DNA from: a virus
Lineage: Duplodnaviria; Caudoviricetes
Reading direction: 5' to 3' (one strand)
DNA length: 29,592 bases
IMG/VR virus record: IMGVR_UViG_3300033551_000029
Coordinates: 1 to 29,592 of that record
Shown: one piece after another, positions 2,655 to 24,848 of the stretch
How positions within the stretch are numbered: the first letter of the stretch is position 1
Layout: each line of letters begins with the position of its first letter
Made by a program: the position numbers and the translations under genes
Notes under the pieces: generated by a model
What the model was told of the DNA's origin: nothing
The model's input: only the letters and a program-made list of their open reading frames with translations
Database searches by the model: none

Positions 2655-2900
2655 ATGGCGACGGTGAGACAGACGGTGCAGGCACTGGCGGCAGGCAAGA
2701 TCAACCTTCGCCAGGCGGCGCAAACCCTGGCCGGCAGGGCCGACTGGGACCCGCCGATGCCGGAGCCGACCGAGGCCCAGCTGTACGGGCTGGAAGACAT
2801 CGCCCCCCCGGGTGACAACAGCCCCGACCAGATCAACATGGTGCCTGGCCTGGAGCCCGACGAGCGCGCTGCCCTGTGGGCGGCGGTCCGTCATGGCTGA
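2655..2900 (+). CDS. small untagged protein (81 aa), candidate antitoxin/immunity
   Basis: GGGAGG RBS and own promoter directly after the zeta-like domain; function inferred from position only. Confidence 0.7.
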   Translation: MATVRQTVQALAAGKINLRQAAQTLAGRADWDPPMPEPTEAQLYGLEDIAPPGDNSPDQINMVPGLEPDERAALWAAVRHG

Positions 2901-7345: not shown

Positions 7346-8620
7346 ATGACGGACGACCAGCCCAGGTGGCCGAAAGGTACGCCGGTGGCCCCAGGCGGCA
7401 AGGGGCCAGGCGGTGGGCGGTTCCGTGGTAAGGCGGGCGACCTCGAAGCCGCGATGGCCGGTTGGGGTGGTGGCGGACCCTGGATGGCAGTCACTCTCGG
7501 TCTGGATGTGCCTGCTAGCGGGCCACTGCCGCCGCAGCGGCCCCCGTTCACTGCCGTTTTTGATCGAGCCCGGCGCGATCCCACCTCCGGCCGCATCGAG
7601 CTAGTGCGCGACTACGGCACTGGTGTCGAGACTTCGCTTTCCCCCGGCATGAACGTCGAGGTGACTCCCCTCGGAGGGTGGATCGGCCAGGTGGTCGACC
7701 GCATGGACCGGCGTCGAGGTGTGGCCAGAACCAGTCGAGTCGATTCCACCATGGCTGAGCCAGCCATGCCGGATGCTCAACCTGGCACGGCCTATGACGT
7801 GGCCGAACTGCTCGAGCAGGGGCATCGGGTGCAGGTTTATCACCCCTACGGCCAGCTGGATGACAGGTGGTCCGAGGTCCAAGCCGCAGAGGTGGTCGGG
7901 GAAGATCACGTGGGCCTGCGGATGCGGCTGGGCCAGGGGAGCGACATATTTACGCATGGCCCGGAGGTGCTGCAGTATCGCATCGTGGGCCGTCGAGAGA
8001 CCCCGAACCCGCCCGTCCTGCGCGCCGACCGGGTGATTGGGTATCCCGAGGAACTGCCGGCCGACCCGACCGAGCGCCAGCGCGAAGAAATCATGCAGAA
8101 CCTGGGTGGCCCTCCGATCTACCCGCAGCGGCAGATGCGTCGGGTGTTTGAGCAGTTCGGGATCGAGGTCAGCGAAGACGACCTTGCCTGGCTGATTGAC
8201 AAGGTCAAGCCGTCGTTCGCCATGCCCTGGTCCGAGTTGGGCAACGCCGTGGTTGAGTACCTGGCCCAACGCGGCAACATTAACGACCTGGTCCGAGTCC
8301 AGAAAATGAACTGGGCCGATTCGATCCGCCCCCCCGAGTTGCACGCCGCCATGCGAGCCCCCTTGACTAACGTCGCCCTGGACGACGGGCCGATGCGGTT
8401 CGAGGCGGCTTTCGAGCAGTACCTGAAAGAGCGCTACGGGTACGAAAGCGAAGAGCTCGACCGGATCTTGAACAGCGAGGCTTTCCATGAGTCTGTTGCG
8501 CCAGACTGGGATCGTTGGGTCGCGGACCGGCCGGGGACCGAACAGATCCTAATGTTCGACCGATTGTTCCAGAACATTACAGACCGCATGCTTTACTACG
8601 GCGAGGGTGTCGATGACTAG
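7346..8620 (+). CDS. tagged protein 4: unknown domains (424 aa)
   Basis: MTDDQPRWPKGTPVAPGGKGPGGGRFR; helix GWIGQVVDRM; small beta-rich unit and helical C-terminal region; lies between terL and portal. Confidence 0.75.
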   Translation: MTDDQPRWPKGTPVAPGGKGPGGGRFRGKAGDLEAAMAGWGGGGPWMAVTLGLDVPASGPLPPQRPPFTAVFDRARRDPTSGRIELVRDYGTGVETSLSPGMNVEVTPLGGWIGQVVDRMDRRRGVARTSRVDSTMAEPAMPDAQPGTAYDVAELLEQGHRVQVYHPYGQLDDRWSEVQAAEVVGEDHVGLRMRLGQGSDIFTHGPEVLQYRIVGRRETPNPPVLRADRVIGYPEELPADPTERQREEIMQNLGGPPIYPQRQMRRVFEQFGIEVSEDDLAWLIDKVKPSFAMPWSELGNAVVEYLAQRGNINDLVRVQKMNWADSIRPPELHAAMRAPLTNVALDDGPMRFEAAFEQYLKERYGYESEELDRILNSEAFHESVAPDWDRWVADRPGTEQILMFDRLFQNITDRMLYYGEGVDD

Positions 8621-10532
8621 TCCAGCCGGATTCGCCCAGCAGGTATACCAGCTGCCGTCCAGCGCGTTCGACGAGCCGGCGCTGGTCAACCCTGGCCAGG
8701 AGCCGGGGGAGCTCCAGGCCGAGGAGGCTGGCGGCCTGCCCCTGCACGGCACCCCCCGCCTGATGGCTGCGCTGGCCGACCTGAAAGCCGCCCGCGAGGA
8801 TTACGCCCTGGCGGATAGCATGTGCGGCGGCACGGTTGGTGACGCGCTGCTGAACCGGCGGGTCGCAGAACTGATGGAACGCGCCGGGGTCAACGAGATC
8901 GAAGACCTGCAGTATGCTCGAGTCCCGGTCGACACGATGATCAGCAAGCTCGGCATCCGGGCGGTCACTGTCGCGCCCACCGACCTGGACCCCGGCCAGA
9001 AGCCCACTCCGGAGCAGGAGTCGCTGGTCGAGCAGGCACAGAAGGTGCTCAGCCAGATCCGGCGGCACAACCAGCTGGACATCGAAGAGGTGGAGCTTTT
9101 CCACCGGGCCTGCCGGTACGGCGAAGCTTACATGGAGGTCTGGCCCAGCGGGGCGATCGCGACCGTGGTCGGCGACGACGACGAACCAGAGATGGCCCTG
9201 AATATCGACGGGATCGACATCTTCGTGTGCTCGCCGGTCAACGTGCGGGCGTTCTATGATGCCGAGCAGCCGTTGCTGTTGACCCATGTGTTGAAAGCCT
9301 GGGAGTGGTACGAGGACGAGGGGCCGGAGGCGAAAGCCCGTTACCGGGCGACCATCTTCGACTACGACGGGATCGAACGCTGGATCTGCGAGCCGGACGG
9401 GTCGCCCGACCGGGCGGAGGACTGGAAGCCGTTCGTTGACGACGTCTCTGACGAATGGCCCCTGCCTTACCCGGAGGGGATGGTGGATGACGGCGGTGAG
9501 CCGGCCATCCCATTCTTCCACTTCCGCAACGAACGCCCCTACGGTGTGCCCGAACACCGGGCTGCATATGGCCCGCAGCGGCTGATTAACAAGCTGGTCT
9601 CGGCGCACGCGGTGTCGATCGACTACCAAGCTTTCCCCCAGCGCTATGCCCTGCTGGACCCGAAGGCAGACGACGCGCTGCTCAACCTGGTCGACCCGGA
9701 CAATCCGGAGGACGACGACGACGACCCGGAGGGCGGTGGGTTCAGTCAGCTACGGGCGGACCCGGCCGCGCTGTGGAAGCTGCGCGCCCAGTCGGTTGGG
9801 CAGTTCTCCCCCGCCGACCCGGCGGTGTTCCTGACCCCCCTGGACCGCTACATCCGCTCGATCGCGGAACTGTGCGGCATCCCCCTGGACCGGTTCACCG
9901 GCTACTCGACCCCACCGTCCGGCCAGTCTCGACGGATCGGCAACGAGGTGCTGTATGACAAGGCGGGCCTGCGCAGGCGCCGTTACCAGGGCACCCTCGC
10001 CGACGCGTACGAGTTCGCGCTACGGCTGATGGGGTTCGGCGAACTGCAGGTGTTGATCAAATGGGAGCCGATGGATGTCGCAGTCGGTCCCGAAGACTGG
10101 GCAGTGATCAGCCAGAAGATCGCCAACGGCGTGCCCAGCCAGCAGGCCCTGGTCGAGGCAGGCTATGCCGAGGACGAGGTTAAGCAATGGCTGCTGGACC
10201 AGGGTGGCCAGGACCTGATCCGTCGAGTGGCGCTGCTGAACCAGATCGGCACGGCCGTGCAGGCGCTGGCCGCCGGGGTCGGGGTCGGGATCATCTCGCG
10301 CGAGCAGACCGCCGACCTGTTCGCCCGGGTGTTGGGTGAGATCGGGGAGGACATCCCGAGCCTGGAGCAGCCGGTCACGGTGCAGCCACCGCCCATCCCG
10401 CCGCAGATGCCTGGCGCCGGCCCTGCCAAGGACGAGGAGGGCGGCACAGCCCCGGCCATGCCGCAGATGCCACCAATGCCCCCGCCAATCCAGGTTGGGC
10501 AGGGCGGGGCGCCGCGTCCGCCCAAGCCGTAA
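8613..10532 (+). CDS. portal protein (SPP1 gp6-like, 639 aa)
   Basis: Position and size; ACRYGEAYMEVWP, IPFFHFRNERPYGVPEH, YQAFPQRYAL and PPSGQSRR motifs; Pro-rich C-tail. Confidence 0.9.
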   Translation: MTSPAGFAQQVYQLPSSAFDEPALVNPGQEPGELQAEEAGGLPLHGTPRLMAALADLKAAREDYALADSMCGGTVGDALLNRRVAELMERAGVNEIEDLQYARVPVDTMISKLGIRAVTVAPTDLDPGQKPTPEQESLVEQAQKVLSQIRRHNQLDIEEVELFHRACRYGEAYMEVWPSGAIATVVGDDDEPEMALNIDGIDIFVCSPVNVRAFYDAEQPLLLTHVLKAWEWYEDEGPEAKARYRATIFDYDGIERWICEPDGSPDRAEDWKPFVDDVSDEWPLPYPEGMVDDGGEPAIPFFHFRNERPYGVPEHRAAYGPQRLINKLVSAHAVSIDYQAFPQRYALLDPKADDALLNLVDPDNPEDDDDDPEGGGFSQLRADPAALWKLRAQSVGQFSPADPAVFLTPLDRYIRSIAELCGIPLDRFTGYSTPPSGQSRRIGNEVLYDKAGLRRRRYQGTLADAYEFALRLMGFGELQVLIKWEPMDVAVGPEDWAVISQKIANGVPSQQALVEAGYAEDEVKQWLLDQGGQDLIRRVALLNQIGTAVQALAAGVGVGIISREQTADLFARVLGEIGEDIPSLEQPVTVQPPPIPPQMPGAGPAKDEEGGTAPAMPQMPPMPPPIQVGQGGAPRPPKP

Positions 10533-10598: not shown

Positions 10599-10636
10599 GA
10601 GTGGTCAGTGGTTTACGCTTCGCTGGAGGGATCGCT

Positions 10637-11593
10637 GTGGCATACAATAGAGATCAGCCCCGGTGGCCTAAGGGCACCCCGCGCAAGGGCAAGGCTGGTG
10701 GCGGACAGTGGCGTGAGGATGGCAAGCCCAACGCCCCGCGTCCGTCCTGGGCTGAACGGATGGGCAGCATCATCGGCCGTCGCCGCCGTGGTGACCAGAC
10801 TCCGCAGGATCCCGACCGGGAACGTCAGATCCAGATTCGTCGTCGCTATGGCATGCCAGATGACGCCAGTGCTGACGAGATCGGCACCCGCATCCGACAG
10901 GCCGGCACCACCCAGACCCACATGCGTCCCGGGGAGTCCGCCCAGGAATATGGCGAGCGGCTCGGGGCGGCGGTCGCGGCCAGCCCCTATTGGACCCCCG
11001 GTCCGGACCCGTATGAGCCGCAGCCAGACTTGACGGGGTTGGGTGACGATGAGCTCGAGGCTCTGGTTGCTGACGACCGACCCCCGGCCGGGGATTTTGC
11101 TGATCAGATCTCGCAGCGGATTGGGCGCAGGCGCGGCGAAGGCCGACCGACTGCGGATTCCGTTACGGACGCTGTTCTGGGGATGCGCGGTAGTTCGCGC
11201 GACGAAGTCGACGAGATGATGGACCGGCAGTTCGGTGATACCGATCTGGCCGAGCTCGGTCGCATCCGTGAGGGACTGGCCGCAGGCAATCAGCTGTACG
11301 ATCGGACCATCGTCAGGGCAATCGACCGGCTGATGGGCCGGCGGACCGGCAACCCTCCCAACCGGGGTACCGCCAGGCTGGAGAGCCTGCGCGATCGCAT
11401 GGGCGAGTTGCGGCAGGCAGGCACTGGCAACGCTGTCGAAGTGCTTGCCGACAGCCTGGCCGATGTGAGCCTGGCGGATCTACGCGACATGCAGGACCGA
11501 CTGGAAGAGCAGCACCGAGCGGACGCCCGGTTGTACGATGAACTCTTGGACCGGGCGATTCGGCGGGCGATTCGTAACGCGCGGGGGCGGTAG
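10637..11593 (+). CDS. tagged protein 5: divergent tag, helical internal duplication (318 aa)
   Basis: GGAGG at 10625-10629, GTG start; MAYNRDQPRWPKGTPRKGKAGGGQWR; two helix copies SWAERMGSIIG and DFADQISQRIG. Confidence 0.75.
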   Translation: MAYNRDQPRWPKGTPRKGKAGGGQWREDGKPNAPRPSWAERMGSIIGRRRRGDQTPQDPDRERQIQIRRRYGMPDDASADEIGTRIRQAGTTQTHMRPGESAQEYGERLGAAVAASPYWTPGPDPYEPQPDLTGLGDDELEALVADDRPPAGDFADQISQRIGRRRGEGRPTADSVTDAVLGMRGSSRDEVDEMMDRQFGDTDLAELGRIREGLAAGNQLYDRTIVRAIDRLMGRRTGNPPNRGTARLESLRDRMGELRQAGTGNAVEVLADSLADVSLADLRDMQDRLEEQHRADARLYDELLDRAIRRAIRNARGR

Positions 11594-11596
11594 GCC

Positions 11597-14500
11597 ATGC
11601 CCAGGCGTCGCGACTACCACGGCCGCGACCCGGGCGAACGCTGGCCGGCAGGGTCTCCTGACGACGCTAGCGGCGACGGGCAGGGCGGCAGATTCCGTCG
11701 GACGGGCTCTGGCGGGGTGCCTGCTGGCGACTGGGCGGAGGTAGTATCCGCCCGCATCGCGGGCGAAAGCATCGATGACCGGGACGAGTCTGCGGTTACC
11801 CGCGAAACAGGCGCTGGGTCGATGGCAGACCTGGCGCGCCTGGTTCGGGAGCACGGCGCAATCGATGTGATGATGCGGCGGGACCCGCACTACGGTTGGA
11901 TGCCGGGCGATCACGAAAGCACCCCGATTGTCATCACCGATGTCAGGGAAGAACCGGGACCGGCCTGGGCGGCCCTGCCGAACATCGGCCTGACTGGTCT
12001 GGATCCGGACAGCGATCTGCCCGAGCACCGGCGTGACTCGATCGACCTGGGTGTATATCCGGGTTCATGGACGGTGCGTTGGCGGATGCCGTGGGATGCC
12101 CCTGAGGGGCAGCAGCGCACCGCTAGCAACATCTCTGCCCTGCTGGGCGACGACTTCGCCGACGTGGAGATTCAGCAAGATGACGGCACCTGGATATCGG
12201 TGGCTGCAGACGTTGGGCGGTATCAGGGGCGACCTAGCGGATATATCTCTCTGCGCGCCCGAGACGGCGGGGTGGAGCCGTTAGGCAACTACAGGGAGGG
12301 CGATTTGATCACCGCCCGGGTCCGGGAGTTGACCGAAGAAGAACGGTTGGCGCGCGAGCTCGGGGATGCCGACCCAGTCGACGTGCCAGGCGACAACGAA
12401 GGGTGGGACCCGCCGACCAATCTCACTGCTGCGTCCGTGGCAGAGAACGCGGCGAACGGCTACGGAGCCCAGATGTGGAACCCGGACTATGACAGATGGG
12501 TTCCCATTCAGATCCAGCGCGAAGACGTTGGCGGCAGAATCCGCTATCGTGTTACCGATGACGACGATGGATTCATTGAGAACTATGCACCGCATGAGCT
12601 TCTGCGGGTGCGGACCGCAACCAACCGGACGCCCGCCACCACTCCTGACACTCCGCCGGGAGTGGAGTGGCGGTCCGGTGGTTCTTGGCCCCCCAACGAT
12701 GTTGCCGCCCTGTTCAGGCAGACAGGCGACGTGCAGATCCGCAACAGTCGCGGTGAGTGGGATAGAGTTGCGTCCGTTGACTATCTGGCCAGCGACGGGC
12801 AGTACCGGTTTGTCCTGGAGAACGACGGTGAGATCTTCGAAGACGAAGACAACAATATTCTTGAGACTCGGATCCTGATCCACACGGACTCTTCGCCCAC
12901 GGTTGCAGTCGAGACCCCGCTGTTGCCGGCCGGAGCCACCTCGGAGCAGTGGCGCGAATATGACAACCTGATCCTAGACAACGCAGTCGAGATCGTGAAC
13001 GACCCGACTTCGGCGGTGGCGGCGCTCGGGCTTAGCCTGCCGAGAGGGTTCGATCACGACGTGTTCCGCAATTGGGTGACGCAACTGCAATCCCTCCGGC
13101 GCACTCCCGGCGCGGAACAGGATGCCCATCGGGCTGCGATGCAGATCAGCCGATTGGCTGGGCTGGACGACTCCCCGTGGATCCAGCAGATGATGCGCCA
13201 TCGGCTCGGTCGAGGTCCCGCCCCCAGTACGGTGTCGTCTCAACGGCAAGAATACAACGACGAGGTTGCCGACGCTGTGCGACTGGCAGTCGAGGCCGGT
13301 CGAATGCGTCTGGCGAGTGGGGGCACAGACCGGGCAGCGGCACATACCGCCTTTAGTGTGCTCGAAGGCGACTATGGCGTGGAAGCCGCCAGTCTGCTCT
13401 GGGACGCCCGGGATTCGAGCGGAACGGCTTTCCTTGCGCTGTCCAACAGCTATGACGATTACCTTGCACAGGTCGCGGCGGGTGATCTGCACGGAGCATC
13501 AGAGACGATTGACGGGCTGGCGGCCTATACCGGGCTGGACGACATCTTCATTGCCCCCACGGAGGGCGCGTCCATTGCCGCCCCAGCGGCGGGCGCAGAC
13601 CCTCCCAGTAACGCCACGAGCGTGGTCATGCATGCCAACGTGGAAACCCTGGTCCGGCACAGGAATCTTGGGGCAGAGGTGGCCGTCCAGATCACCACCC
13701 CAACTGGTCCCGGTTGGTATGCGGTGCAGTTCCACGGGGTAGAGCACGACGGCACCATTTCCCTGCAAGTTGCGGACATCGCTCACGACGACGAGCCTTG
13801 GTATGACTTCGAACCCGGCACACCGGTCCAGTTCGTCCACTTCGACCAAGGTCCCGAGCAATATGAGGCGACCGCCGCCGATTTGGCAGCCGGGCTGTAC
13901 GGTAGCCCTGGCGAGCTTGAAATTTTGATCCCCACCGGGTGGGAGCTGGTCCGTGGCTGGGACAACGATGGATCGCTGGTAGACATCCTAACCTGGCAGG
14001 CGGACGGCACCGAGGGAAGCATCACGCGCACCCCCGGCCAGGAGATTACGTGGCGGCCCCGCCCGCCTGGGGTTACCCCACGTCCTTTGCCGCGCCAACA
14101 GGTTGCCCCTCCCACCCCGCCTGCGCCGCAAGTGAGCCCGCTACATTCATGGAACAACCCGCCGGCTGGCGAACTGCCCGGCGGGGCGGCCACCCTGCGC
14201 GAGATGATGGAGGTGCTGCAGGCGGCCCAGTTGGGCTGGGCGTCACTAACCATATCGCCGGAACTCAAACGGCGGATCGAGCAGATCTTCGCCTACACCG
14301 ACCCCTCGTCTGGGCTCGAGGCCAGGATTACCACCATTGAGCTCTCTGCTGCTGGGCGGATGGCTGTCGGTGGCCGGGTGTATGACCAGAACGGTCGCGA
14401 CGTTGGCAACTGGTCCCGCAACCTCGATGCTGACGGGAATGTCTATCATGCTTATTTCCGACTGAACCCAGACATCCAGGGCGACGGGTTTACCACCCGC

Positions 14501-14956
14501 TGGTTCGAGCAGGTGCTGGACGGATACCGCGCCGAGGGCATGTCCAAGGTTGCGGTGTCTGCCAACATCGATGTGGGCGGCTACACCTGGTCGCGGTGGT
14601 TCGATTTCGCCGACCCTGGGCGCGCCCGGATGTTCTTGGAACAGATGCTGGCGGCGGTTGATCAACGCTGGTACCAACATGTCACCCCCGACACCAAGCA
14701 GGAGATCGAAGATTTGATCACTCGGCTGGAGAATGGCGGTCGGGTCACTGCCCGGGAGGTCTCACAGGTCGGCTACAGCAGGCGCCAGCGGATCAACCCC
14801 CCTGATGGGTATGAGTCGAATCCCCAGGACTGGGATTCGAACGCCGACTGGATCCGGGATATTCTGCCGCGACGGGGCAGCGGCACGCCGATAGAGATGT
14901 GGCTCGGCAAGCACTTCATGCTCGGTAAGTCTTGGGCTGGTGTGCTCGAGCTCTAA
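11597..14956 (+). CDS. tagged effector 6: polyvalent-type protein with repeated beta-rich units and a C-terminal GNAT-like domain (1119 aa)
   Basis: Divergent tag ERWPAGSPDDASGDGQGGRFR; DWAEVVSARIAG; C-terminal YHAYFRLNPDIQGDGF ... SANIDVGGYTWSR GNAT-like pattern. Confidence 0.75.
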   Translation: MPRRRDYHGRDPGERWPAGSPDDASGDGQGGRFRRTGSGGVPAGDWAEVVSARIAGESIDDRDESAVTRETGAGSMADLARLVREHGAIDVMMRRDPHYGWMPGDHESTPIVITDVREEPGPAWAALPNIGLTGLDPDSDLPEHRRDSIDLGVYPGSWTVRWRMPWDAPEGQQRTASNISALLGDDFADVEIQQDDGTWISVAADVGRYQGRPSGYISLRARDGGVEPLGNYREGDLITARVRELTEEERLARELGDADPVDVPGDNEGWDPPTNLTAASVAENAANGYGAQMWNPDYDRWVPIQIQREDVGGRIRYRVTDDDDGFIENYAPHELLRVRTATNRTPATTPDTPPGVEWRSGGSWPPNDVAALFRQTGDVQIRNSRGEWDRVASVDYLASDGQYRFVLENDGEIFEDEDNNILETRILIHTDSSPTVAVETPLLPAGATSEQWREYDNLILDNAVEIVNDPTSAVAALGLSLPRGFDHDVFRNWVTQLQSLRRTPGAEQDAHRAAMQISRLAGLDDSPWIQQMMRHRLGRGPAPSTVSSQRQEYNDEVADAVRLAVEAGRMRLASGGTDRAAAHTAFSVLEGDYGVEAASLLWDARDSSGTAFLALSNSYDDYLAQVAAGDLHGASETIDGLAAYTGLDDIFIAPTEGASIAAPAAGADPPSNATSVVMHANVETLVRHRNLGAEVAVQITTPTGPGWYAVQFHGVEHDGTISLQVADIAHDDEPWYDFEPGTPVQFVHFDQGPEQYEATAADLAAGLYGSPGELEILIPTGWELVRGWDNDGSLVDILTWQADGTEGSITRTPGQEITWRPRPPGVTPRPLPRQQVAPPTPPAPQVSPLHSWNNPPAGELPGGAATLREMMEVLQAAQLGWASLTISPELKRRIEQIFAYTDPSSGLEARITTIELSAAGRMAVGGRVYDQNGRDVGNWSRNLDADGNVYHAYFRLNPDIQGDGFTTRWFEQVLDGYRAEGMSKVAVSANIDVGGYTWSRWFDFADPGRARMFLEQMLAAVDQRWYQHVTPDTKQEIEDLITRLENGGRVTAREVSQVGYSRRQRINPPDGYESNPQDWDSNADWIRDILPRRGSGTPIEMWLGKHFMLGKSWAGVLEL

Positions 14957-14962
14957 ACCGGA

Positions 14963-14984: not shown

Positions 14985-15009
14985 TGGGGGGGAGAAGAGG
15001 AGGCGCGAA

Positions 15010-15276
15010 ATGGACCACAAGGAGTACATGCGGCGGATGCGCGAGATCACCGCAGCATGGAGCAAGCGCTACTCCGAGCGCATCCCGAACGAGTATCCCG
15101 CCGGGTCTGACCCCCACGAGGGGGTGGCCCCCGAAGAAAGCGACTATGCCCAGTTCCACGCCCAGCATGCGGCTGCGCCGGAGTTCATGGACATCCTCGA
15201 AGAAAAGCTGGCCGCACTCGACCGCGAGTGGGCGCAGTCGCCGGAAGCACAAGGAGCAGGACATGGCCGCTCGTAA
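15010..15276 (+). CDS. small untagged protein (88 aa), candidate immunity/partner
   Basis: GAGGAGG RBS at 14997-15003, own promoter, GC3-rich codons. Confidence 0.75.
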   Translation: MDHKEYMRRMREITAAWSKRYSERIPNEYPAGSDPHEGVAPEESDYAQFHAQHAAAPEFMDILEEKLAALDREWAQSPEAQGAGHGRS

Positions 15277-15574
15277 GGCGCTAGTGCGCAACCTCGACAA
15301 GGTCGTGATCGGTCAGTTGATCGATGACGGCACCCACGAGCCCTACGGCACCAACCCGATGGTGGACGAGATGCTGCGGGCTGACCGACGGGACCGGTTC
15401 GACCGGTACTACCTGGGCTACAGCAACGGCTTTACCTTCGAGACGGTGCCGGAGGTGGCGGTCCGCAAGCCGGCCGTGTGGGACCAGTTCCTGGCCTGGG
15501 CTCGTAGCGACGGCCGCAACGCCAGCATGGCGGACAAGGTCGCCAAGCTCGATTCCATGGCGGGTGCCCGGTGA
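15263..15574 (+). CDS. small untagged protein (103 aa)
   Basis: AAGGAG RBS at 15251-15256, ATG 15263 (MAARKALVRNLDK), GC3-rich codons; stop overlaps the next start. Confidence 0.7.
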   Translation: MAARKALVRNLDKVVIGQLIDDGTHEPYGTNPMVDEMLRADRRDRFDRYYLGYSNGFTFETVPEVAVRKPAVWDQFLAWARSDGRNASMADKVAKLDSMAGAR

Positions 15575-16134
15575 GCCGCCGCGACGACCAGGACCGCTGG
15601 CCGAAAGGCACCCCGGTTGGGCCGGGTGGCAAAGGCCCAGGTGGTGGGCGGTTCCGCGATGCGGGGCCGTCCGCCCCGGGCGTCGGTGGAGACTGGGCGG
15701 ACCGAATCTCCAGTTCGATTGGCGGCGATGCTGACAACGAGGCTCTCCTTGATTGGGAGACGAAAGCTTCCGAGTACATGCGCAGCGTCGAGAGCATGCG
15801 CGACGACGAGATCAACGACTTCTGGGAGTGGGTGGCCCTGACCGGAGGGGGCGGCCCCGACGACGGGGACCCGGAGGACTGGGCTGCTCGAGTCCTGTCG
15901 GAGTTCTATGAAGACCGAGACGACGGGAACGAGGATGGCATCTCCCCTGGGGAGGCCGCCTATGACCCCCGCACAACCAGTTTCGTGGTGGGCATGACCG
16001 TCAACCTGCCAGGCGGCGGTAGGGGTCGGGTCACCGCCGTGGGTAGTGACGGGTTCGTGTTCGTGCAGCCCGATGGGGGCGGCCAAGTCCAGGTGCACAC
16101 CGCCAGCTTCTTGCGGAGCCTGCGGGACGGCTGA
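15571..16134 (+). CDS. tagged protein 7: acidic region plus C-terminal KOW/SH3-like domain (187 aa)
   Basis: DQDRWPKGTPVGPGGKGPGGGRFR; DWADRISSSIG; FVVGMTVNLPGGGRGRVTAVGSDGFVFVQPDG. Confidence 0.7.
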   Translation: MSRRDDQDRWPKGTPVGPGGKGPGGGRFRDAGPSAPGVGGDWADRISSSIGGDADNEALLDWETKASEYMRSVESMRDDEINDFWEWVALTGGGGPDDGDPEDWAARVLSEFYEDRDDGNEDGISPGEAAYDPRTTSFVVGMTVNLPGGGRGRVTAVGSDGFVFVQPDGGGQVQVHTASFLRSLRDG

Positions 16135-16146: not shown

Positions 16147-17187
16147 ATGCCAGCACCAGCCGATCAACCCCGGTGGCCGGAGAATATCCCCTGGAGTCCC
16201 AGGGGGCCGGCACCGGGGCGTTGGCGTAGTCGCGCTGACGCCACGTCTTGGACCGACCTGCTATACCAGCGGATCACCGGGCAGCCTGTCTGGGCGGACC
16301 GCAGCCGGGTTGCCCTACAGGCCCTGGGTCGCCCAACCAGCCGGCGGCGGCTTGGCGGCGGGGCGATCGCTGAAACCGAAGTGCTTACCTACGCTGACGG
16401 TTCGGCTGCGATCCGCAAGATCTTCGGTGGCGAGGCCGATGATCGGTTGAACCAACACCGGGCCAGCGCAGAGTACATGGCGTCGCTGGTCGCCCAGGCG
16501 GTCGGCGCGACCGCCCCTGCTGTGGTGAAAGACCCGACCGACCCGGAACACTCGGTGATCATGGGCCGGGTCACCGGTGACATGGGGACTATCCACACCG
16601 GAGAGGCTAGCGCCGAGGAATGGGGCCAGGCGCTATATTACTTGACCCAAACCGATGGCGGGCTGCGGATCGGCCTGCTGGACGTGCTGATTGCCAACCA
16701 GGACCGCCACTCGATGAACTGGTTGCTGTCCGACCAGATGGCCGATCCCCACCCGTGGAACCCTACCCGAGAGGACATGCGCCGACCGATCGCGATCGAT
16801 CATTCGGAAGCGTTCCCTCTGGCCACGCTCGCGCAGGCGTACCACTTCCGGATCGCCGACCCACAGGGGCAGCCGCTGTACACGATGCCATTGGAGGTCG
16901 GGGCCTACGGCGGCTTCTTTACTCCCTGGATGCAGCGGACGAACGATGTCGTGGACATGCTCGGTAACCCGGTGGCACAGGCCCCCCTTCTCGGGGCCTA
17001 CGCCTACCGGGATGGCAATCCGCTGCACCCAGATGACGTTCCGGTGTTGCGTGCCCGGCTGGAACGGCTGAAGTCGCTGTTCGAGGATGAGCCGACCGGG
17101 CACTTGGCATACCAGGACATGATGGCTCGGTTTGAGCAACTGGCCGCGCGAGCAGGCGGGCGCGAGAGGATGTTTCCCGATGTCTGA
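16147..17187 (+). CDS. tagged effector 8: HipA / PI3-PI4-kinase-like kinase (346 aa)
   Basis: Divergent tag DQPRWPENIPWSPRGPAPGRWR; IRK, AEYMAS, LLDVLIANQDRHSMNWL and IAIDHS motifs. Confidence 0.82.
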   Translation: MPAPADQPRWPENIPWSPRGPAPGRWRSRADATSWTDLLYQRITGQPVWADRSRVALQALGRPTSRRRLGGGAIAETEVLTYADGSAAIRKIFGGEADDRLNQHRASAEYMASLVAQAVGATAPAVVKDPTDPEHSVIMGRVTGDMGTIHTGEASAEEWGQALYYLTQTDGGLRIGLLDVLIANQDRHSMNWLLSDQMADPHPWNPTREDMRRPIAIDHSEAFPLATLAQAYHFRIADPQGQPLYTMPLEVGAYGGFFTPWMQRTNDVVDMLGNPVAQAPLLGAYAYRDGNPLHPDDVPVLRARLERLKSLFEDEPTGHLAYQDMMARFEQLAARAGGRERMFPDV

Positions 17188-18154
17188 TGACCAGCCGCGT
17201 TGGCCCGCCGGCACCCCTGTTGCGCCTGGCGGCAAAGGCCCTGGCGGCGGTCGCTTCCGTGGGATTGGCGTGCCCGGTCGGGGGGGGTGGGTCGAACAGG
17301 TCTCGGGTCGGTTTGCCCGAGGCTGGGCCAATGATGATCGTAGCCGGGACGAACTGTTCGAGGTCGTGCAGTCGGCTGCGTCCGCCCCCGATGGCATGCC
17401 GCCCGGGGCTACCATGGAGAACTACAGCGGCGATGCCGCGACTGTTTGGCGCATCGACTTGCCGGATGGTCGATCCGTGGTGCGCAAATCCTACGACGAA
17501 GCATTGTCGGACTATTACGATGGCGAATATGACGAGCAGTACGATGACGACGACGGGGAGTATTTGTCGGTCGACGATCCTCGCAGACGACCAGCCAAAG
17601 AGGATGAAGTTCATGCACGGGCGGAGTGGGTGTCTGCTCGGGTCGCGCGGGCAGTCGGCGCGTTGGTCCCCCCGGTGGTTTTTGACCCCCAATGGGGCGG
17701 CGCGGTGTGGATGGGCTGGGTCGATGGCAAGACTGGCATCAACTGGGACTTTGAACACCAGGACAAGGGGGCGACACTCGCTGCCAAGCAGGATATGTGG
17801 CGGCTTGGACTGCTCGACCTACTGATCATCAATAGCGATCGCCACGAACTGAACTGGCTTTTCACCGAGGACGGTCGGGTTTTTGGGATCGACCATGGCT
17901 ATGCGGGACTGTTCACGGATTTTGTCCCGACCGAGGCCATTGGGGCGATCTCGCCATTCGCCCAACTGTATTACGACAGCGGCGAGAAACTTAAACCGAA
18001 CATCTTACATCCGGACGACATCGATGATGTCATCGGGCGGCTTGGGGGCCTGTGGGAAGACGGCACCTTGAGTGAGCCCGAGTACAACTACATGGTGCGG
18101 GTGATGAACTGGCTGCGCCCCCACGCTACCGGCACTAGGAGGCTGATCCCGTGA
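17180..18154 (+). CDS. tagged effector 9: HipA / PI3-PI4-kinase-like kinase (324 aa)
   Basis: MSDDQPRWPAGTPVAPGGKGPGGGRFR; VRK, AEWVSA, LLDLLIINSDRHELNWL and FGIDHG motifs. Confidence 0.82.
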   Translation: MSDDQPRWPAGTPVAPGGKGPGGGRFRGIGVPGRGGWVEQVSGRFARGWANDDRSRDELFEVVQSAASAPDGMPPGATMENYSGDAATVWRIDLPDGRSVVRKSYDEALSDYYDGEYDEQYDDDDGEYLSVDDPRRRPAKEDEVHARAEWVSARVARAVGALVPPVVFDPQWGGAVWMGWVDGKTGINWDFEHQDKGATLAAKQDMWRLGLLDLLIINSDRHELNWLFTEDGRVFGIDHGYAGLFTDFVPTEAIGAISPFAQLYYDSGEKLKPNILHPDDIDDVIGRLGGLWEDGTLSEPEYNYMVRVMNWLRPHATGTRRLIP

Positions 18155-19215
18155 GTGACCAGTCGCGCTGGCCTGCGGGCACCCCGGTCGCCCCCGGCGG
18201 ACGCGGTCCTGGCGGGGGGCGGTTTCGGGAGCGCTGGGCCGATGCCATTGTTTACAGCTTGACTGGACACATACCGGTTCCCCGGACGCGGGTCGCGGTT
18301 GACCCGCAGATTGCTGCCGATCTGTATGCGGTTGCTCGATATGACGTGGGCGCCCCATCCGGAGTGGAGATCCAAGCTAGCCAGGAGTTGTGGGAAGAAC
18401 GCAGTCGGTGGTGGGATCGCCGCCACGACGTGAACAGCCGTCTGCGGGCGGCTGTTGATGACACTCTCTCACGCGAGCAGATCATGGAACGGGCATATCG
18501 TGATGCCGGCATCGACCACTACTTCGAGGAGTACGTCGAACGCAACGGGATAACTGACCCTGAGGCGTTCAAGCGGCAGGCCGTTGAGCGCATGCGGCAA
18601 TATTGGGCTGGGATGGAAGTCGCAATCCGGATCACTCCGACCGGCCTGGAAAGGATGTTGGGAGACCGGCGATTCCGAACGGTGCACGAGACTGGGCGCA
18701 GTGGGGGGCTGAACGACGCAGATGTGCGTGCCCGTCACGAGGCGGTTACCTGGGGCTATCTGCCAGAAGGCGATCCTCGAGCTCGGCCGGTGTATGGCTA
18801 CTTGATGGACCGGGATCGTCCAGCCGGCGACAAAGATTCGTTCGCCGACAACGGTGATGCCCTGTCGCAGTACGGTCGAGTTCAAGTGGTGTTGCGCAGC
18901 AGTGTTCGCCAACGAACTACCGCGATGTACGGCGATTCCCTGGACATGAAGCTGTTTGGCGAACCGTCCCCGGTCGATGATCCCGACTGGCGCAGCTGGA
19001 CGTTCGGTCGGGGTGGGATCTTCGGAGCCCCCTACATGGGTCTGGATCGTGACAACTTGCACACGAGCTTGGCGTACATCGAGGCACAGGTCCATGGCGG
19101 GGTGGAATCGGAAGACATCGAGCGAGTAATCTTCACAGATCGGGGGCCGCCGGCTGCGCTGCGGCGGCTGCTGGAGGAACACGGGATCGGCTGGAGCGTG
19201 GTACGCAGTGGCTGA
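18151..19215 (+). CDS. tagged effector 10: DUF3626-like (putative ART-related) domain (354 aa)
   Basis: Tag DQSRWPAGTPVAPGGRGPGGGRFR; RFRTVHETGRSGG, RPVYGYL, YGRVQVVLR, RTTAMYGDS and YIEAQVHGGV motifs. Confidence 0.75.
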   Translation: MSDQSRWPAGTPVAPGGRGPGGGRFRERWADAIVYSLTGHIPVPRTRVAVDPQIAADLYAVARYDVGAPSGVEIQASQELWEERSRWWDRRHDVNSRLRAAVDDTLSREQIMERAYRDAGIDHYFEEYVERNGITDPEAFKRQAVERMRQYWAGMEVAIRITPTGLERMLGDRRFRTVHETGRSGGLNDADVRARHEAVTWGYLPEGDPRARPVYGYLMDRDRPAGDKDSFADNGDALSQYGRVQVVLRSSVRQRTTAMYGDSLDMKLFGEPSPVDDPDWRSWTFGRGGIFGAPYMGLDRDNLHTSLAYIEAQVHGGVESEDIERVIFTDRGPPAALRRLLEEHGIGWSVVRSG

Positions 19216-20326
19216 CCAGGCGCGTTGGCCCCGGGGCACGCCGGTGGCCCCCGGCGGCCGTGGCCCCGGCGGGGGGCGATTCCGCGACGCCGAGGTCGAT
19301 TGGGCCGACCTGGCGGTCGATCGAATGATGCCTGCCCGCAACCCCCGGCTGGGGCTGAGTCGCGCCGAGCTCCAGGACCTGATCGACAATCCGCCCGAGT
19401 CCATTCCGGGACCACCCAGAACGCTGCCGGCTCTGGACGCAGCAGTTCAGATGATGCAAGACGAGCTCGGCGAGTATGAGGTGCAGCACGACGGCGCCTG
19501 GCGGCAGATGGCCTCCATTGCCCCCTTGTCGGTTGGGGGGCTGCTATACCGCTCCTGGGTGCCCGAACAGTTGCAGTGGGAAGTCGGCCGCGACGAACCT
19601 GTCACCTTCCGGCGCCACCCCCCGCCATACACCCGGGAGGACATCTCCGATGGCGGTGGGAGCTACACCCAACGCGTGGTGTGGAACGATGGCCGGCGAG
19701 TCGTAGTCAAAGGCGGCGGCGCCACCCGGGACACCGATGCGGAATATCTGGCGAGCCTGGTCGGGCAGGCAGTCGGAGCTCCGGTGCCCGAAGTGCTCCG
19801 GATCAGCAGTCAGACTGTCTGGATGGGCCATGTCAGTGGCGATTCGGGGATGATGGTTGCACAAAAGCGCGGCCTGGACCCGTACGAGGTCACCGACGAC
19901 TGGGAAGAGATCTGGGCCGACCAGGAACCCGGGTGGCGGCTCGGGTTGCTCGACGTGCTGATCATGAACGAAGACCGACACCACGGCAACTGGCTGTTCG
20001 AGGACCCATCCGACCCCGCCAGCATTGTTGGGATTGACCACGGTCGGGCCTGGTGGGTTGCCGACCGGTTGCGCCCGGTTGAGCCCGGGGAGCGCCCGAT
20101 CGGCTTGAAGCCTGATTGGACGGCTATCCGGCGGGCGGTCTACGATGGGGCAGTGCCCCACGGTTGGCGCACCGATCGGACGACCCTGCAGGAGGTGCAG
20201 CAGATGGACGCCCGAATCCGTGCACTCGAGCCCGAGTTCCTGGCGCTGGACCGAGGGCGTTGGTTCGACCACACGCTTGCTGCTTGGGACAGTTTCGTAG
20301 CCGCGATGCAGGCCGACCATGGGTGA
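19208..20326 (+). CDS. tagged effector 11: HipA / PI3-PI4-kinase-like kinase (372 aa)
   Basis: Tag DQARWPRGTPVAPGGRGPGGGRFR; VVK, AEYLAS, LLDVLIMNEDRHHGNWL and VGIDHG motifs. Confidence 0.82.
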   Translation: MADQARWPRGTPVAPGGRGPGGGRFRDAEVDWADLAVDRMMPARNPRLGLSRAELQDLIDNPPESIPGPPRTLPALDAAVQMMQDELGEYEVQHDGAWRQMASIAPLSVGGLLYRSWVPEQLQWEVGRDEPVTFRRHPPPYTREDISDGGGSYTQRVVWNDGRRVVVKGGGATRDTDAEYLASLVGQAVGAPVPEVLRISSQTVWMGHVSGDSGMMVAQKRGLDPYEVTDDWEEIWADQEPGWRLGLLDVLIMNEDRHHGNWLFEDPSDPASIVGIDHGRAWWVADRLRPVEPGERPIGLKPDWTAIRRAVYDGAVPHGWRTDRTTLQEVQQMDARIRALEPEFLALDRGRWFDHTLAAWDSFVAAMQADHG

Positions 20327-21554
20327 TCAACCGAGGTGGCCCGCCGGCACGCCGGTGGCTCCTTCAGGGAAGGGACCCGGCGGGGGGCGGTTCCGGGCAA
20401 CTGGGCCGATACATTGGCGGGTGTTCCCGACCGGTGTGCTGCCCGATCTGGTTCCCGGGGACGACTCGCGCGACGCAGTCCTGCAGATACGCCGGGGCGA
20501 GGAACATGGTGGTGGGCTAGGCCGGTGGTGGTTCGCTGCGGGCGATGAGGAGCACAACGACGAAGAATCGGCCCGACGCGGCGCTGAACACTACGGTGGC
20601 GAGGGTCAAATCCTGGTCGGGGCTCGGTTTGAGCACCCGGAGCGGTTGGAGAGCCCCAGGCACTCCAGTGGGCTCTATGCCCGCGAACCGCTGCAGTTGT
20701 TGGTCGAACAGGTGCACGTCTGGGAGAACGGTCGGTGGGAGCCGATCGAGGTACCGGAGGGATTGACCTCTTGGACTTCTGCGCCGCACGATTGGGCCGA
20801 ACAGGTGGCGGGACGGCTGCCCGGTGAGCGTCGGGCGGCCGGTCGCGAAGCACTGGAGGCGATTCCTCTCAGCATCCGAGACGGTCGGGGATTTGCCATT
20901 GCGCTCTTCGGGGACCAGGATTACTATGCGCCCGGTGGCGGCGCCGACACGCTCCACGCGATCCACGACTACCAGTCGGTTGGCTATCGCGACGTTAACC
21001 CACACCTGCGCAATCCCGCCGAGGTTTCTCTTGCGCGCTACCGGCATCGCTGGGGGCAGTGGGAAAGTCCGGATGATATTGAAGCCATGGCCAAAGTTGA
21101 GGCACGAGCGCAACGGCTGATGGAGCTCATGGGAGAACACGTTACGCTGATCGATCGCGCATTGGATGCGTCGCGCACCGAGAGAGATGTCGAGCTCTGG
21201 CGTGGGTTCGACGGTGGATATCTTGGCGATCTGTCAGTTGGGTCTACTTGGTCCGATGGGGCTTACACCTCTACCACGGCAGACCGGGAGGTTGCCTCGA
21301 TGTTTGCATCACACGAAGCCGGGGGCGTGCTTGTGCGGCTTCTCGTCCCTCGGGGAACCCCGGCATTGCGGATGTCTGACTTCTATGCCCCGGGGACAGC
21401 TGATGGCATCCGTGGTGAGGCCGAGGTGTTGTTGGGTCGGGGGCTTGAGTTCGTGGTGGTGGCCGACCGGGGGATAGTGGAAGTCGACCAAGAAGCTGAT
21501 GGGACGCCGCGCATGGCCCGGGTGTTCGATGTGGCAGTCCGAGAGATGGAATAG
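20319..21554 (+). CDS. tagged effector 12: unknown N-domain plus VIP2-like ADP-ribosyltransferase (411 aa)
   Basis: Tag DQPRWPAGTPVAPSGKGPGGGRFR; DWAEQVAGRLPG linker; YRDVNPHLR, ELWRGF, AYTSTTAD and GEAEVLLGRG ART motifs. Confidence 0.85.
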   Translation: MGDQPRWPAGTPVAPSGKGPGGGRFRATGPIHWRVFPTGVLPDLVPGDDSRDAVLQIRRGEEHGGGLGRWWFAAGDEEHNDEESARRGAEHYGGEGQILVGARFEHPERLESPRHSSGLYAREPLQLLVEQVHVWENGRWEPIEVPEGLTSWTSAPHDWAEQVAGRLPGERRAAGREALEAIPLSIRDGRGFAIALFGDQDYYAPGGGADTLHAIHDYQSVGYRDVNPHLRNPAEVSLARYRHRWGQWESPDDIEAMAKVEARAQRLMELMGEHVTLIDRALDASRTERDVELWRGFDGGYLGDLSVGSTWSDGAYTSTTADREVASMFASHEAGGVLVRLLVPRGTPALRMSDFYAPGTADGIRGEAEVLLGRGLEFVVVADRGIVEVDQEADGTPRMARVFDVAVREME

Positions 21555-21559: not shown

Positions 21560-22678
21560 TTGACTAGCCCGCTGCCGACAGCACCCGACCCCACTCAGCT
21601 GGCGGTCGAGCTCGCGGCTGCCCAGGCGGTCACCGGCGGGCTGCAGGCCCAGCTACAAGAAGCCACTCGGCAGATCATCGGGCTATACATCGCGTACGCC
21701 GGCAGTGTCAACAACCCGATCCCGCAGAACGCTCGACGGGCATTCACTGCAGCCGCCGCCCGCGTCATCTCCTCGGTCGTGGTCGACATCCGGCAGGTCC
21801 TGTGGGAGATGGTGTGGCAGGCGCTGATGGAAGGGCAACGCGCTGCCCTGTCCTATCTGGCCGACTCGACCCAGCAGATGCTGACCCAGTACGGTGCAGC
21901 CGCCTATCACGAGGCAGTGGCCGGCGCGGTCTCTGCGGCCAGGTCGTACGGTGGCCAGGCGTTGGGCACCGCGCAGTGGGCAGGCAACGTGGTGTCGACC
22001 GCACAGGCTCGGCTGGACGCTGCGCTCATGGCAGCGCGCTCGCACCACCGTCTGGCCGCTGTTGGCGGCGGGGAGATCACGTTCGAGTCCGTGTTGGCGG
22101 GCCTGGCACCCCTGCAGCAGACCTTGAACGATCTGGAACGTGACACCCGGTGGGCGATCAACTCGGCATTCAACCAGGCCAGCCGCGACATCTCCGACTC
22201 ACACGGGGTGGCCCGGATGTGGGTCGCGGAAGAGGACGCCTGTCTGCACTGTCTGGCGCTGTCCGGTGAGATCGCCGGCCCTGGCCGCCCGTTCGACGCC
22301 GACCTGACCTACTACGTCGCCCCCAATGGCAACCTGAAGCCCCTGCCGGTATATCCGGTCGGTGGGTACCTCTGGGGGCCGCCGCGCCACCCGAACTGCC
22401 GATGCAGCCAGATACCCGTACCGGAGCTCTCCGGTTACCCGGTGATGCCATGGGAGGCGCGGGAATACCACCCGGCGCAGGCGCTGCAGCGGGAAGCTCG
22501 CCGCTCGGTCCTGCGGGGCGACTCCGGATCGGATTCACTGCCTGCACGGCTGCGGGCTACTGCCGGGCTGTTGGCCATCGGGGCTCGTCTGCCCCGGTCT
22601 GTGGAGGCTCGAGCTCGTGCCGCACTGCGCGCCGGACGCTACCCGGATCGGCGTTGGGATAGGTCGCAGACACCGTGA
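21560..22678 (+). CDS. MuF-like (SPP1 gp7-like) minor head / head morphogenesis protein (372 aa)
   Basis: WVAEEDACLHCLALSGE ... GPPRHPNCRC signature; directly upstream of scaffold. TTG start uncertain. Confidence 0.8.
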   Translation: MTSPLPTAPDPTQLAVELAAAQAVTGGLQAQLQEATRQIIGLYIAYAGSVNNPIPQNARRAFTAAAARVISSVVVDIRQVLWEMVWQALMEGQRAALSYLADSTQQMLTQYGAAAYHEAVAGAVSAARSYGGQALGTAQWAGNVVSTAQARLDAALMAARSHHRLAAVGGGEITFESVLAGLAPLQQTLNDLERDTRWAINSAFNQASRDISDSHGVARMWVAEEDACLHCLALSGEIAGPGRPFDADLTYYVAPNGNLKPLPVYPVGGYLWGPPRHPNCRCSQIPVPELSGYPVMPWEAREYHPAQALQREARRSVLRGDSGSDSLPARLRATAGLLAIGARLPRSVEARARAALRAGRYPDRRWDRSQTP

Positions 22679-22731: not shown

Positions 22732-23568
22732 ATGACCCTTCAGACCTGGCCCGTCCTGCTCGGGTATACCCCTGGCGGCAAACCGATCTACCACATCGCG
22801 GGCGGCGCTCCCATCACCGCTGAGCCGGACGACGACGACTTCGACGACGGCTCCGATGGCGACGATGGTCCGGCTGCTTCGACGACCACAGCCCCCCCGA
22901 TGCCCGGGGTGCCTGCTGCGGCCCCTGCAGCCGCCCCGACTGTCGAAGATCTGCAGGCCCAGCTGGAGCGCTCGCAGGCCGCGAACCGGCGCAACAACGC
23001 CGAGTTGACACAGCGCCGGCACGTGCAGAAGTTCATGGACAAAGCCGGGGTTCGGACCTACGACGAACTATTGGCGAAGTTCGGGATCGACCCGGACGGC
23101 AACCCGGTCGCGCCTGCCGCCCCCGAACCGGCCGCCACTGCTCCTGAGCCGACCGCCGCCACCGAGCCGGCGCCGGTGGATGAGACGGAGATCGAACGCA
23201 GGGTACGCGCTAAGTTCGAGCGCGACCTGGCGCAGAAGGAGGAGCGGGCAGCCGCTCTCACGGAGGCCCTGCGTAGCACGGCGATCCAGGCTGCCCTGAC
23301 TGCGGCCAAGTTCACCGGCACCTTCGAGAAGGCATTGCTGGTCATGGACTTGTCCAGGGTCGATGTCGAGGAGGACGGCAAGGTCACAGGGGTGGAGGCA
23401 GCGGTGCAGGGCTTGCGGGAGGAGATCCCGGAGTGGTTCCGCCGCGAAGCCCCCCCGCCACCACCTCGCCGGCAGGTCGGGGTGGACCGGGGTGACAAGC
23501 GCCAGCCGGCGGCCAGACCCCCGACATGGGAGCAACGGGCTGCGGACCGGATGATCCGGGGACGCTAA
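22732..23568 (+). CDS. capsid scaffolding protein (278 aa)
   Basis: Upstream of the MCP; acidic and Pro/Ala-rich start, coiled coils, GVEAAVQGLREEIPEWF motif; AAAGGAA RBS. Confidence 0.85.
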   Translation: MTLQTWPVLLGYTPGGKPIYHIAGGAPITAEPDDDDFDDGSDGDDGPAASTTTAPPMPGVPAAAPAAAPTVEDLQAQLERSQAANRRNNAELTQRRHVQKFMDKAGVRTYDELLAKFGIDPDGNPVAPAAPEPAATAPEPTAATEPAPVDETEIERRVRAKFERDLAQKEERAAALTEALRSTAIQAALTAAKFTGTFEKALLVMDLSRVDVEEDGKVTGVEAAVQGLREEIPEWFRREAPPPPPRRQVGVDRGDKRQPAARPPTWEQRAADRMIRGR

Positions 23569-23756: not shown

Positions 23757-24848
23757 ATGGATCGCATGAAGCTTCCCGGCCGGGCCGAATGGCTCGTTGT
23801 GCCGGACGAGGACATCAACCCGTTCAAGTCGGCCCCCGGGGTGCTGCTCGGGTTCACCGACAGCGGCAAGCCGATCTTCCACGTGACCGGTGGTGCGCCG
23901 GCCAACGTCGACGACTGGATCCCGATCGAGTACGACTCCGAGGTCGTGCAGCGGGTTCTGATGGAGTCGTGCATCGAGCGTTATGCCAACCGCGTGCCGA
24001 TGCGCTCCAAGACCAAGAGCATCCCGCGTTCGGCGGGCATCGTGGTCTCGGCCGGCACGACCTACACCGACGACACCTCCACCAACGACGAGGTGACGAT
24101 CACCGCCCGCCGGTTCATCGCTCGATTCAAGATCGACGAGGACGACCTGGCGGACGCCTCGACTCGGGTCGACGTGATCCGCACCAAGGGCGTGGACTGG
24201 GCGATCTCCTACGCCGACACGTTCGACAACGCGTGTCTCGCGGTCACTGGCGCGGAGAACGGCACCACGGTCCCGTTCACCAGCCTCTACCGCCAGCTGC
24301 GTTCGACCGACAACGACGTGTCGTACACGGCGGACGACAACTACCTGACCTGGGATGACGACAAGATCGCCATCAGCGGCACCCCGGACGGCACCTCGCT
24401 CTACGAGAAGCTGTCGGGCATGTTCCGACTCGTCGAGACCGGTAAGTACTGGTCGCCGGCCGACTCGCTGGTGATCGCCCACCCGGGCTGGCGCGACGCG
24501 CTGCGCCTGTGCACCGACGCCCAGGGCCGTCCGATCTTCCAGCCTGGTGCTGGGTTCGGCCTGCCGGGCAACGGCACCCCGGACATGCTGTTCAACACGC
24601 CGATCTCCTGGAGCCGTGGCGCCAAGACCTCAGCGCTGAACAGCGGCTCGCCGGACGGCAACGACCTGATCTTCTTCGTCAACCGGCGATTCCTGCGCCG
24701 GGGCGACCGGTCCGGTCCGGAGACGCTGACCGACGACGCGCGGGCGCAGGACGACACCGACGACTACGCGATCAAGTTCCGCACGCGTCGGGCGTTCAAG
24801 TGCACCCACCCGGCGGCTGCGGCCGTGGTCGAGCGGCTGACCGACTAA
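23757..24848 (+). CDS. major capsid protein (HK97 fold, ~363 aa)
   Basis: GGAGG at 23740-23744; WIPIEYDSEVVQ, DEVTITARRF, LRLCTDAQGRPIF and HPAAAAVV motifs; extreme GC3 bias; alternative start 23766. Confidence 0.9.
   Translation: MDRMKLPGRAEWLVVPDEDINPFKSAPGVLLGFTDSGKPIFHVTGGAPANVDDWIPIEYDSEVVQRVLMESCIERYANRVPMRSKTKSIPRSAGIVVSAGTTYTDDTSTNDEVTITARRFIARFKIDEDDLADASTRVDVIRTKGVDWAISYADTFDNACLAVTGAENGTTVPFTSLYRQLRSTDNDVSYTADDNYLTWDDDKIAISGTPDGTSLYEKLSGMFRLVETGKYWSPADSLVIAHPGWRDALRLCTDAQGRPIFQPGAGFGLPGNGTPDMLFNTPISWSRGAKTSALNSGSPDGNDLIFFVNRRFLRRGDRSGPETLTDDARAQDDTDDYAIKFRTRRAFKCTHPAAAAVVERLTD

Follow-up and report, generated by a model that had tools for sequence, protein, structure and literature searches.

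A head module with twelve tagged genes

The window, i.e., the whole stretch of 29,592 nucleotides analyzed here, comprises the head-and-neck module of a tailed phage with high GC content, in which the genes for terminase, portal, a short MuF-type protein, scaffold and an HK97-fold major capsid protein (MCP) follow one another in the usual order (Table 1). Relatives of its MCP include those of prophages in Streptomyces and Actinomadura and, at 32-47% identity, those of cultured phages of Streptomyces and Microbacterium, which points to an actinobacterium as the probable host. No protease family was matched among the 31 window genes scanned. The scaffold (22753-22811) and the MCP (23841-23899) share an N-terminal leader, LLG(Y/F)T..GKPI(Y/F)H..GGAP, which is 73% identical at the DNA level, forms a hairpin in both structure models and is absent from some relatives; it recalls the host-cleaved leader common to the scaffold and capsid proteins of 80alpha (PMC5744158). 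Additionally, an intergenic promoter-like repeat resembling CACGCGGTGTGGTA(A/T/C)AAT heads gene blocks at 135-165, 2614-2644, 10575-10605 and 14961-14991, with similar copies near 5989 and 23637.

Amid these head genes lie 12 genes (T1-T12) whose products start with the tag RWP..G(R/Q)(F/W)R. Enzyme-like Pfam matches, several of them weak, were obtained for seven of the 12 proteins and no Pfam match for the other five; the domain types are ADP-ribosyltransferase (ART), zeta-type kinase, GNAT, PI3/4-kinase-like and DUF3626, placed by Pfam as listed in Table 1. MuF models matched none of the 12, apart from a weak PHROG "minor head protein" match over the zeta domain of T1. T8, T9 and T11 are three diverged kinase-like paralogues that have in common a DNA repeat over the catalytic motif (16147-20326). 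The small untagged genes at 2655-2900 and 15010-15574, which come immediately after T1 and T6, have homologues behind related genes elsewhere and are candidate immunity genes.

Each tagged protein also contains one or more copies of a short W-helix. The 13 copies that an earlier note had listed are all present at the positions reported, in frame and distributed over the 12 genes, although one begins with F and those of T8 and T10 are weak. The motif search that the same note had proposed, run de novo with the tag masked, returned the same site in all 12 proteins, with a score of 198 bits against 136-150 bits in eight shuffles (1500 starts for the real set, 500 for the shuffles). Likewise, leave-one-out profiles placed 12 of the 13 sites at the top of their own protein, the thirteenth coming second behind the other copy of the same protein. 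The helix follows the tag by 2-12 residues in seven proteins and comes after the first domain in five; its copies are N-terminal, internal or C-terminal, among unrelated domains or in linkers. Selection on the helix acts on the protein, since third codon positions are the least conserved (38% identity, the other two positions standing at 56% and 63%), and the same figures rule out a DNA- or RNA-level repeat as the origin of the motif. No Pfam or NCBIfam model spans tag or helix; PHROG profiles for portal can extend over the tag in other phages. The product of the MuF-type gene reaches a top helix score of 1-2 bits.

Table 1. Coordinates of head genes, tagged genes and predicted binding elements in the window
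Feature	Coordinates	Strand	Basis and remarks
T1	1012..2619	+	tag 1030; ART domain; helix 1777-1803 in linker; zeta-toxin-like kinase
T2	2893..3621	+	tag 2908; unknown domain; C-terminal helix 3574-3600
T3	3614..4369	+	tag 3629; GNAT acetyltransferase; helix 4160-4186
Large terminase	4366..5952	+	PHROG 38
T4	7346..8620	+	tag 7364; helix 7679-7705; unknown domains
Portal protein, untagged	8613..10532	+	PHROG 104
T5	10601..11593	+	tag 10661; two helices, 10748-10774 and 11096-11122
T6, 1119-aa multidomain protein	11597..14956	+	tag 11639; helix 11732-11758
T7	15571..16134	+	tag 15595; helix 15694-15720
T8	16147..17187	+	tag 16171; weak helix 16249-16275; PI3/4-kinase-like domain (weak match)
T9	17180..18154	+	tag 17198; helix 17288-17314; PI3/4-kinase-like domain
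T10	18151..19215	+	tag 18166; weak helix 18235-18261; weak DUF3626 match
T11	19208..20326	+	tag 19223; helix 19301-19327; PI3/4-kinase-like domain (weak match)
T12	20319..21554	+	tag 20334; helix 20793-20819 (the co-folded one); ART domain
Short minor head protein of MuF type; effector domain, tag and helix all absent	21560..22678	+	weak PHROG and TIGR01641 matches
Capsid scaffolding protein, 278 aa, immediately 5' of the MCP gene	22732..23568	+	Pfam Phage_scaffold (E 3e-13), PHROG head scaffolding, structure model
Scaffold C-terminal helix W266-I275, W-x3-hydrophobic-x2-R/Q-hydrophobic	23527..23556	+	invariant W266; helix in model
MCP, HK97 fold, 363 aa	23757..24848	+	Pfam, PHROG, NCBIfam, model and fold search
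Predicted docking site, part 1: residues 51-63 of the MCP N-arm	23907..23945	+	co-fold; I57 lies opposite the W of the helix
Predicted docking site, part 2: MCP residues 126-145 at the start of the spine helix	24132..24191	+	co-fold; helix 137-161 in model
Predicted docking site, part 3: MCP residues 323-325, 337 and 339	24723..24773	+	co-fold

Scaffold tails and the helices of tagged proteins

As in phages with 80alpha/P22-type scaffolds, the scaffold-family gene lies directly upstream of the gene for the HK97-fold MCP, and its product is predicted to carry the conserved free amphipathic helix that in this type follows a flexible linker at the extreme C-terminus. The protein ends in TWEQRAADRMIRGR (23524-23565), and W266 (codon at 23527) is one of four invariant columns among 18 scaffolds sharing 24-46% identity. 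In the structure model, which consists of long helices, a linker of ~25 residues precedes the free helix 266-275, with a pLDDT of ~90 in block 261-270. Direct searches with the window scaffold found no relatives, and related scaffolds and loci were reached via the MCP. Of 105 scaffold records found beside related MCPs, redundant across collections and holding 50 distinct W-tails, 101 have a W located 10-18 residues from the end and four have none. Searches of solved structures with the tag-helix module and with the scaffold gave no significant match, and an atlas look-up gave leads under 0.9 only.

The earlier note had also held that the scaffold tail repeats the pattern of the helices in the tagged proteins (hereafter cargo helices), a claim that stands for the scaffold family but is weakened for the window's own tail. 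In 11 of 12 settings the latter comes first among ~4,100 windows from 20 untagged proteins, where chance alone would give 0.12-0.53 such windows per shuffled proteome; however, of 145 strict amphipathic W-helices, 10 match or exceed it when scored with the window profile and 46 when scored with that of the relatives, a comparison that is conservative because the control set contains some true cargo helices whose tags escaped the tag pattern. At position +1 it has E, where cargo helices mostly have A. As judged from sequence, the window's own tail is therefore a modest match, suggestive only. At the family level, a profile of 18 relatives' scaffold tails, built with no cargo, gave the top rank to a cargo site in 10 of the 12 tagged proteins and placed cargo sites at 12 of the top 15 positions among 8,910 windows. 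In line with these results, a profile made solely from 13 tails of cargo-free phages (drawn from 23 loci that cover terminase to scaffold with no tagged gene) found the cargo helix as the best window in 11 of 12 proteins, whereas column-permuted versions did so in a mean of 1.5 proteins and only 1 in 2000 reached 11. A cargo-free scaffold tail, that of L061, is identical to the T12 helix at 8 of 10 positions. Furthermore, when cargo helices were anchored by position as the first W after the tag (51 distinct), their column-wise fit to scaffold tails was bettered by at most 2 of 40,320 column orders, and cargo helices outscore strict amphipathic W-helices, on non-core columns too (p 4e-5 and 2e-8).

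Could the likeness be convergent, the helix being a generic amphipathic W-helix of the tag module with no capsid role? The match spans just nine residues, the window's own tail does not stand out from strict amphipathic helices, MCP N-arm helices of four loci likewise reach 14.5 bits, and fine co-variation is absent. Nevertheless, the blind recovery of the cargo site in 11 of 12 proteins, the extension of the match to non-core columns, the near-identity of the T12 helix to a cargo-free tail and the lack of the helix behind 123 tags outside the clade (see below) together make convergence very unlikely. As to co-variation between helix and scaffold tail in related phages, which the earlier note had proposed to check, it is seen at clade scale only: across 14 groups, cargo helices showed none with the tail of their own phage (trace 0.0, P=0.49), and the window tail ranks 12th of 14 for its own cargo. 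A conserved docking site would account for this, but one predicted sign is thereby lost.

Tag and helix across phages

In relatives, the tag mostly reads W-x-x-x-x-HPR-x(3-12)-G(R/E/Q/K)F. Across 13 related phage groups, a W occurs at its end or up to 20 residues further on in 58 of 62 distinct tagged proteins, a number that includes orthologues; a helix of at least 5 bits lies near the tag in 46 of the 62, and near the tag or elsewhere in 54. Distal W-helices of at least 10 bits, found in 14 of the 62, are often C-terminal, as in the scaffold, and are commoner where the first copy is weak (7/16 vs 7/46, p=0.034, the cases not being independent). The number of tagged proteins differs widely between relatives. 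Such second copies, as in T5 and these 14 proteins, would suit auxiliary scaffolds that change capsid size or assembly, and CpmB employs exactly such a copied helix (PMC5644958); given that the tagged proteins hold unrelated enzyme domains and vary so much in number between relatives, we regard this role as extremely improbable.

Several arrangements in related loci deserve mention. In one of them (L130, at 5414, 9602, 10079 and 11974) the last aromatic residue of the tag (GRW) doubles as the helix W, so that tag and helix form one motif. A scaffold-like W-helix also ends small untagged proteins of 65-76 aa (L005:7669-7866, L010:4948-5157, L132:6946-7176 and L072:743-973), three of which are encoded right behind a tagged gene; they are candidate co-packaged immunity or partner proteins. 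Additionally, genes in small-terminase position (L063:219-818 and L099:383-964) start with a tag-like RD..GR(F/Y), which hints at a possible DNA-binding role of the tag.

A scan for the tag pattern yielded 131 loci from 30 of the 64 parts of the viral collection, with clade membership checkable (by flank length) for 80 of them. The 127 distinct tags included 124 that could be scored, one in this clade and 123 outside. A W-helix of at least 5 bits follows none of the 123 out-of-clade tags; for tags located at N-termini elsewhere, the count is 0 of 34. The two elements can thus occur separately, the helix being specific to this clade; moreover, because the tag occurs elsewhere with no helix, N-termini included, the tag alone may suffice for packaging. 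Among the 47 out-of-clade tagged frames scanned (of 83), in 11 the tag lies at or close to the end of a portal domain, two have a MuF-type domain and one a head protease, and in large multidomain proteins the tag is repeated up to five times or more with no helix. In its form HPRD..G(R/K/Q)F, which no Pfam or NCBIfam model matched in the proteins scanned, the tag is widespread in unrelated phages (L139-L269; P0124-P0132), where it frequently follows a portal or MuF domain or recurs within multidomain proteins.

In a tree of 48 MCPs, rooted at midpoint only and built after a length and motif filter had dropped others, one clade (98/88) holds all 18 cargo-bearing rows, and all 12 cargo-free rows lie outside it. 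These 12 cargo-free rows all have W-tails. Read most simply, the tail of the scaffold came first and cargo took on the likeness. Three cultured relatives that were inspected have neither W-tails nor tagged genes in the head region, and tblastn of the tag-helix module against cultured phages gave no match or three non-significant ones.

Predicted docking, a putative loading route and known systems

In two known systems, scaffolds bind the N-arm of the capsid protein. In 80alpha, where capsid and scaffold proteins stand at 2:1, the scaffold's C-terminal helix packs at low occupancy on the N-arm helix and forms a palisade with the spine helix, and CpmB copies this scaffold helix (PMC5644958; PMC5744158); in P22, a scaffold hook binds N-arm residues (PMC12005531). 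MCP residues 47-363 (121-row alignment) were co-folded with a 32-residue piece of T12 (39 rows) that contains the helix and lacks the tag. The pair scored 0.61, against 0.01 for the best of three controls (0.00-0.01); of 157 solved complexes 116 attain the mark applied, as do 2 of 215 mismatched pairs, a benchmark that is rough since the alignments were self-made. The runs share at least 85% of contacts, with a partner pLDDT of at least 54, and the contacts are confined to the helix (residues 12-18 and 20-23 of 32). According to this model, which covers one of the 13 helices, the best-scoring one, the helix is predicted to bind MCP residues 51-63, 126-145 and 323-339. The proposal of the earlier note that cargo docks on the scaffold-binding site of the capsid protein is thus supported, by this predicted placement on the N-arm and spine helix and by the family-level likeness. 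Given that the scaffold helices and hooks of 80alpha and P22 bind the N-arm, the co-fold pass may also reflect likeness to solved scaffold-capsid complexes. The window's MCP N-arm helix itself (23931-23957) scores -3.7 bits under the scaffold profile, and that of L065, L110, L111 and L112 shows a similar pattern at 14.5 bits.

Independently of the model, MCP position 57, one of the closest contacts of the W, is I, L or M in all 59 rows with W-tailed scaffolds and E in all six phages without a W-tail (three alignment rows and Zuko, KimJongPhill and Gibson), a link that may go back to a single evolutionary event. Mutual information between scaffold-tail columns and the predicted MCP interface columns was not enriched (p=0.16). 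An association of an acid at +1 with a basic MCP residue 142 (8/12 vs 12/42, p=0.039) comes largely from one subclade and was set aside.

These data bear on two further readings. A scaffold-like helix might instead have the portal vertex, the scaffold core or MuF as its partner, so that cargo clusters near the portal and not over the shell; P22 scaffold hooks do sit on the portal too, ejection proteins dock on scaffold columns (PMC12005531), and the out-of-clade tagged frames include the 11 portal fusions and two MuF-type proteins mentioned above. The defined, W-centered site predicted on the MCP, with controls at 0.00-0.01, and the way in which position 57 follows the W make such a partner unlikely. 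Alternatively, binding to the MCP, predicted equally in this case, could be a switch by which the capsid protein sequesters toxic enzymes in the producer or activates them against a competitor phage of the same capsid type. Several cargo domains are indeed toxin-like enzymes, and capsid-sensing defence is known (PMC11312562). Still, a switch is quite unlikely for genes that sit amid those for terminase, portal, MuF and scaffold and whose helix is found at termini or linkers of unrelated domains; in addition, ART genes in head modules have been interpreted as packaged effectors (PMC9503650).

The W-helix of the tagged proteins is likely a scaffold-derived capsid-loading peptide that would pack effector-like proteins into the head. 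Specifically, docking of the nine-residue helix that matches the scaffold tail is predicted at the MCP's N-arm and spine helix, likely the site of the scaffold itself, and cargo helices would occupy spare scaffold sites during prohead assembly. On expansion the site would close and the scaffold exit, folded cargo being held inside as are P22 scaffold fusions; cargo would then leave with the DNA at ejection and act on the host. The widespread HPR..GRF tag would serve a later step, i.e., DNA tethering, release or ejection, and the helix would stand in for the portal or MuF fusion that anchors many tagged effectors in other phages. We consider this sequence of docking on spare sites, loading, retention and later ejection, with a later role for the tag, to be probable. 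With less assurance, though still leaning in its favor, we propose that an actinobacterial phage clade made the capsid-binding helix of its scaffold a transferable loading tag of ten residues, grafted next to the HPR..GRF tag, which is widespread and would be older and serve ejection or DNA tethering, and so packs up to about a dozen interchangeable effectors per genome into the head with no portal or MuF fusion, as a natural encapsulin-like cargo system in a DNA phage.

For most phages, we know of no described route by which stand-alone effector and ejection proteins enter the head. The present finding offers a concrete loading signal, a predicted site and single-residue targets (the cargo W and MCP I57), and it tells apart two signals on the same proteins, a putative clade-specific loader and a widespread tag. 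If the proposal is true, proteins could be brought into actinophage proheads with a minimal tool of ten residues, and packaged effectors among unannotated genes would be recognizable by the motif. In the open-access literature searched, supplements aside (that of PMC5512222 may list the tag), no scaffold-tail motif is reported on a phage's own effectors.

Among known systems, CpmB of SaPI1 and the scaffold of phage 80alpha offer a close parallel, in that a second protein bears a copy of the scaffold's C-terminal amphipathic helix directed at an N-arm site of the HK97 fold, here a predicted one (PMC5644958). The tagged proteins share with CpmB the sequence likeness to the capsid-binding tail of the scaffold; however, their genes lie inside the phage's own head module and not in a satellite that hijacks a helper capsid. 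Whereas CpmB is a single protein of a satellite and redirects capsid size, 12 phage genes with unrelated enzyme domains are involved here, and the motif is W-based and lacks the RIIK hook (PMC5644958). Similarly, in engineered P22 fusions a C-terminal piece of the scaffold brings foreign folded proteins into proheads, and the fused cargo remains trapped past expansion (PMC9962691). Unlike these laboratory fusions, which use scaffold residues 141-303 or 238-303 (PMC9962691), the version described here would be natural and ~10 residues long, if true.

MuF polymorphic toxins and polyvalent proteins are variable head-module effectors (ART, kinases, GNAT) that are thought to be packaged and injected (PMC5576092; PMC5512222; PMC9503650). 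In agreement with the Alt-like and polyvalent types, enzymatic domains occur among the head genes of the window; yet, unlike MuF- or portal-fused effectors (PMC5576092; PMC5512222; PMC9503650), the effectors are separate genes with tag and helix, and the portal and MuF proteins, the latter encoded by a gene of its own, are bare. The word "scaffold" is absent from the main text of both PMC5576092 and PMC5512222. The T4 capsid targeting sequence (CTS) is likewise a short peptide common to diverse head-packaged counter-defence proteins, but, going by its description in PMC3012670, it steers them into the scaffolding core and is not presented as a copy of a scaffold tail. Of natural loaders, the CTS comes nearest in role.

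Encapsulin cargo is loaded through cargo-loading peptides. As would be the case here, it is co-assembled within an HK97-fold shell, and a parallel between cargo and scaffold has been drawn, together with speculation on cargo in procapsids (PMC13669383). By contrast, encapsulins are cellular compartments with no DNA packaging, and in that account the similarity between cargo and scaffold is low, with no common peptide of the kind seen here (PMC13669383). By analogy, the tagged system would work like CpmB mimicry and like engineered P22 loading, yet it involves no satellite protein and no MuF fusion.
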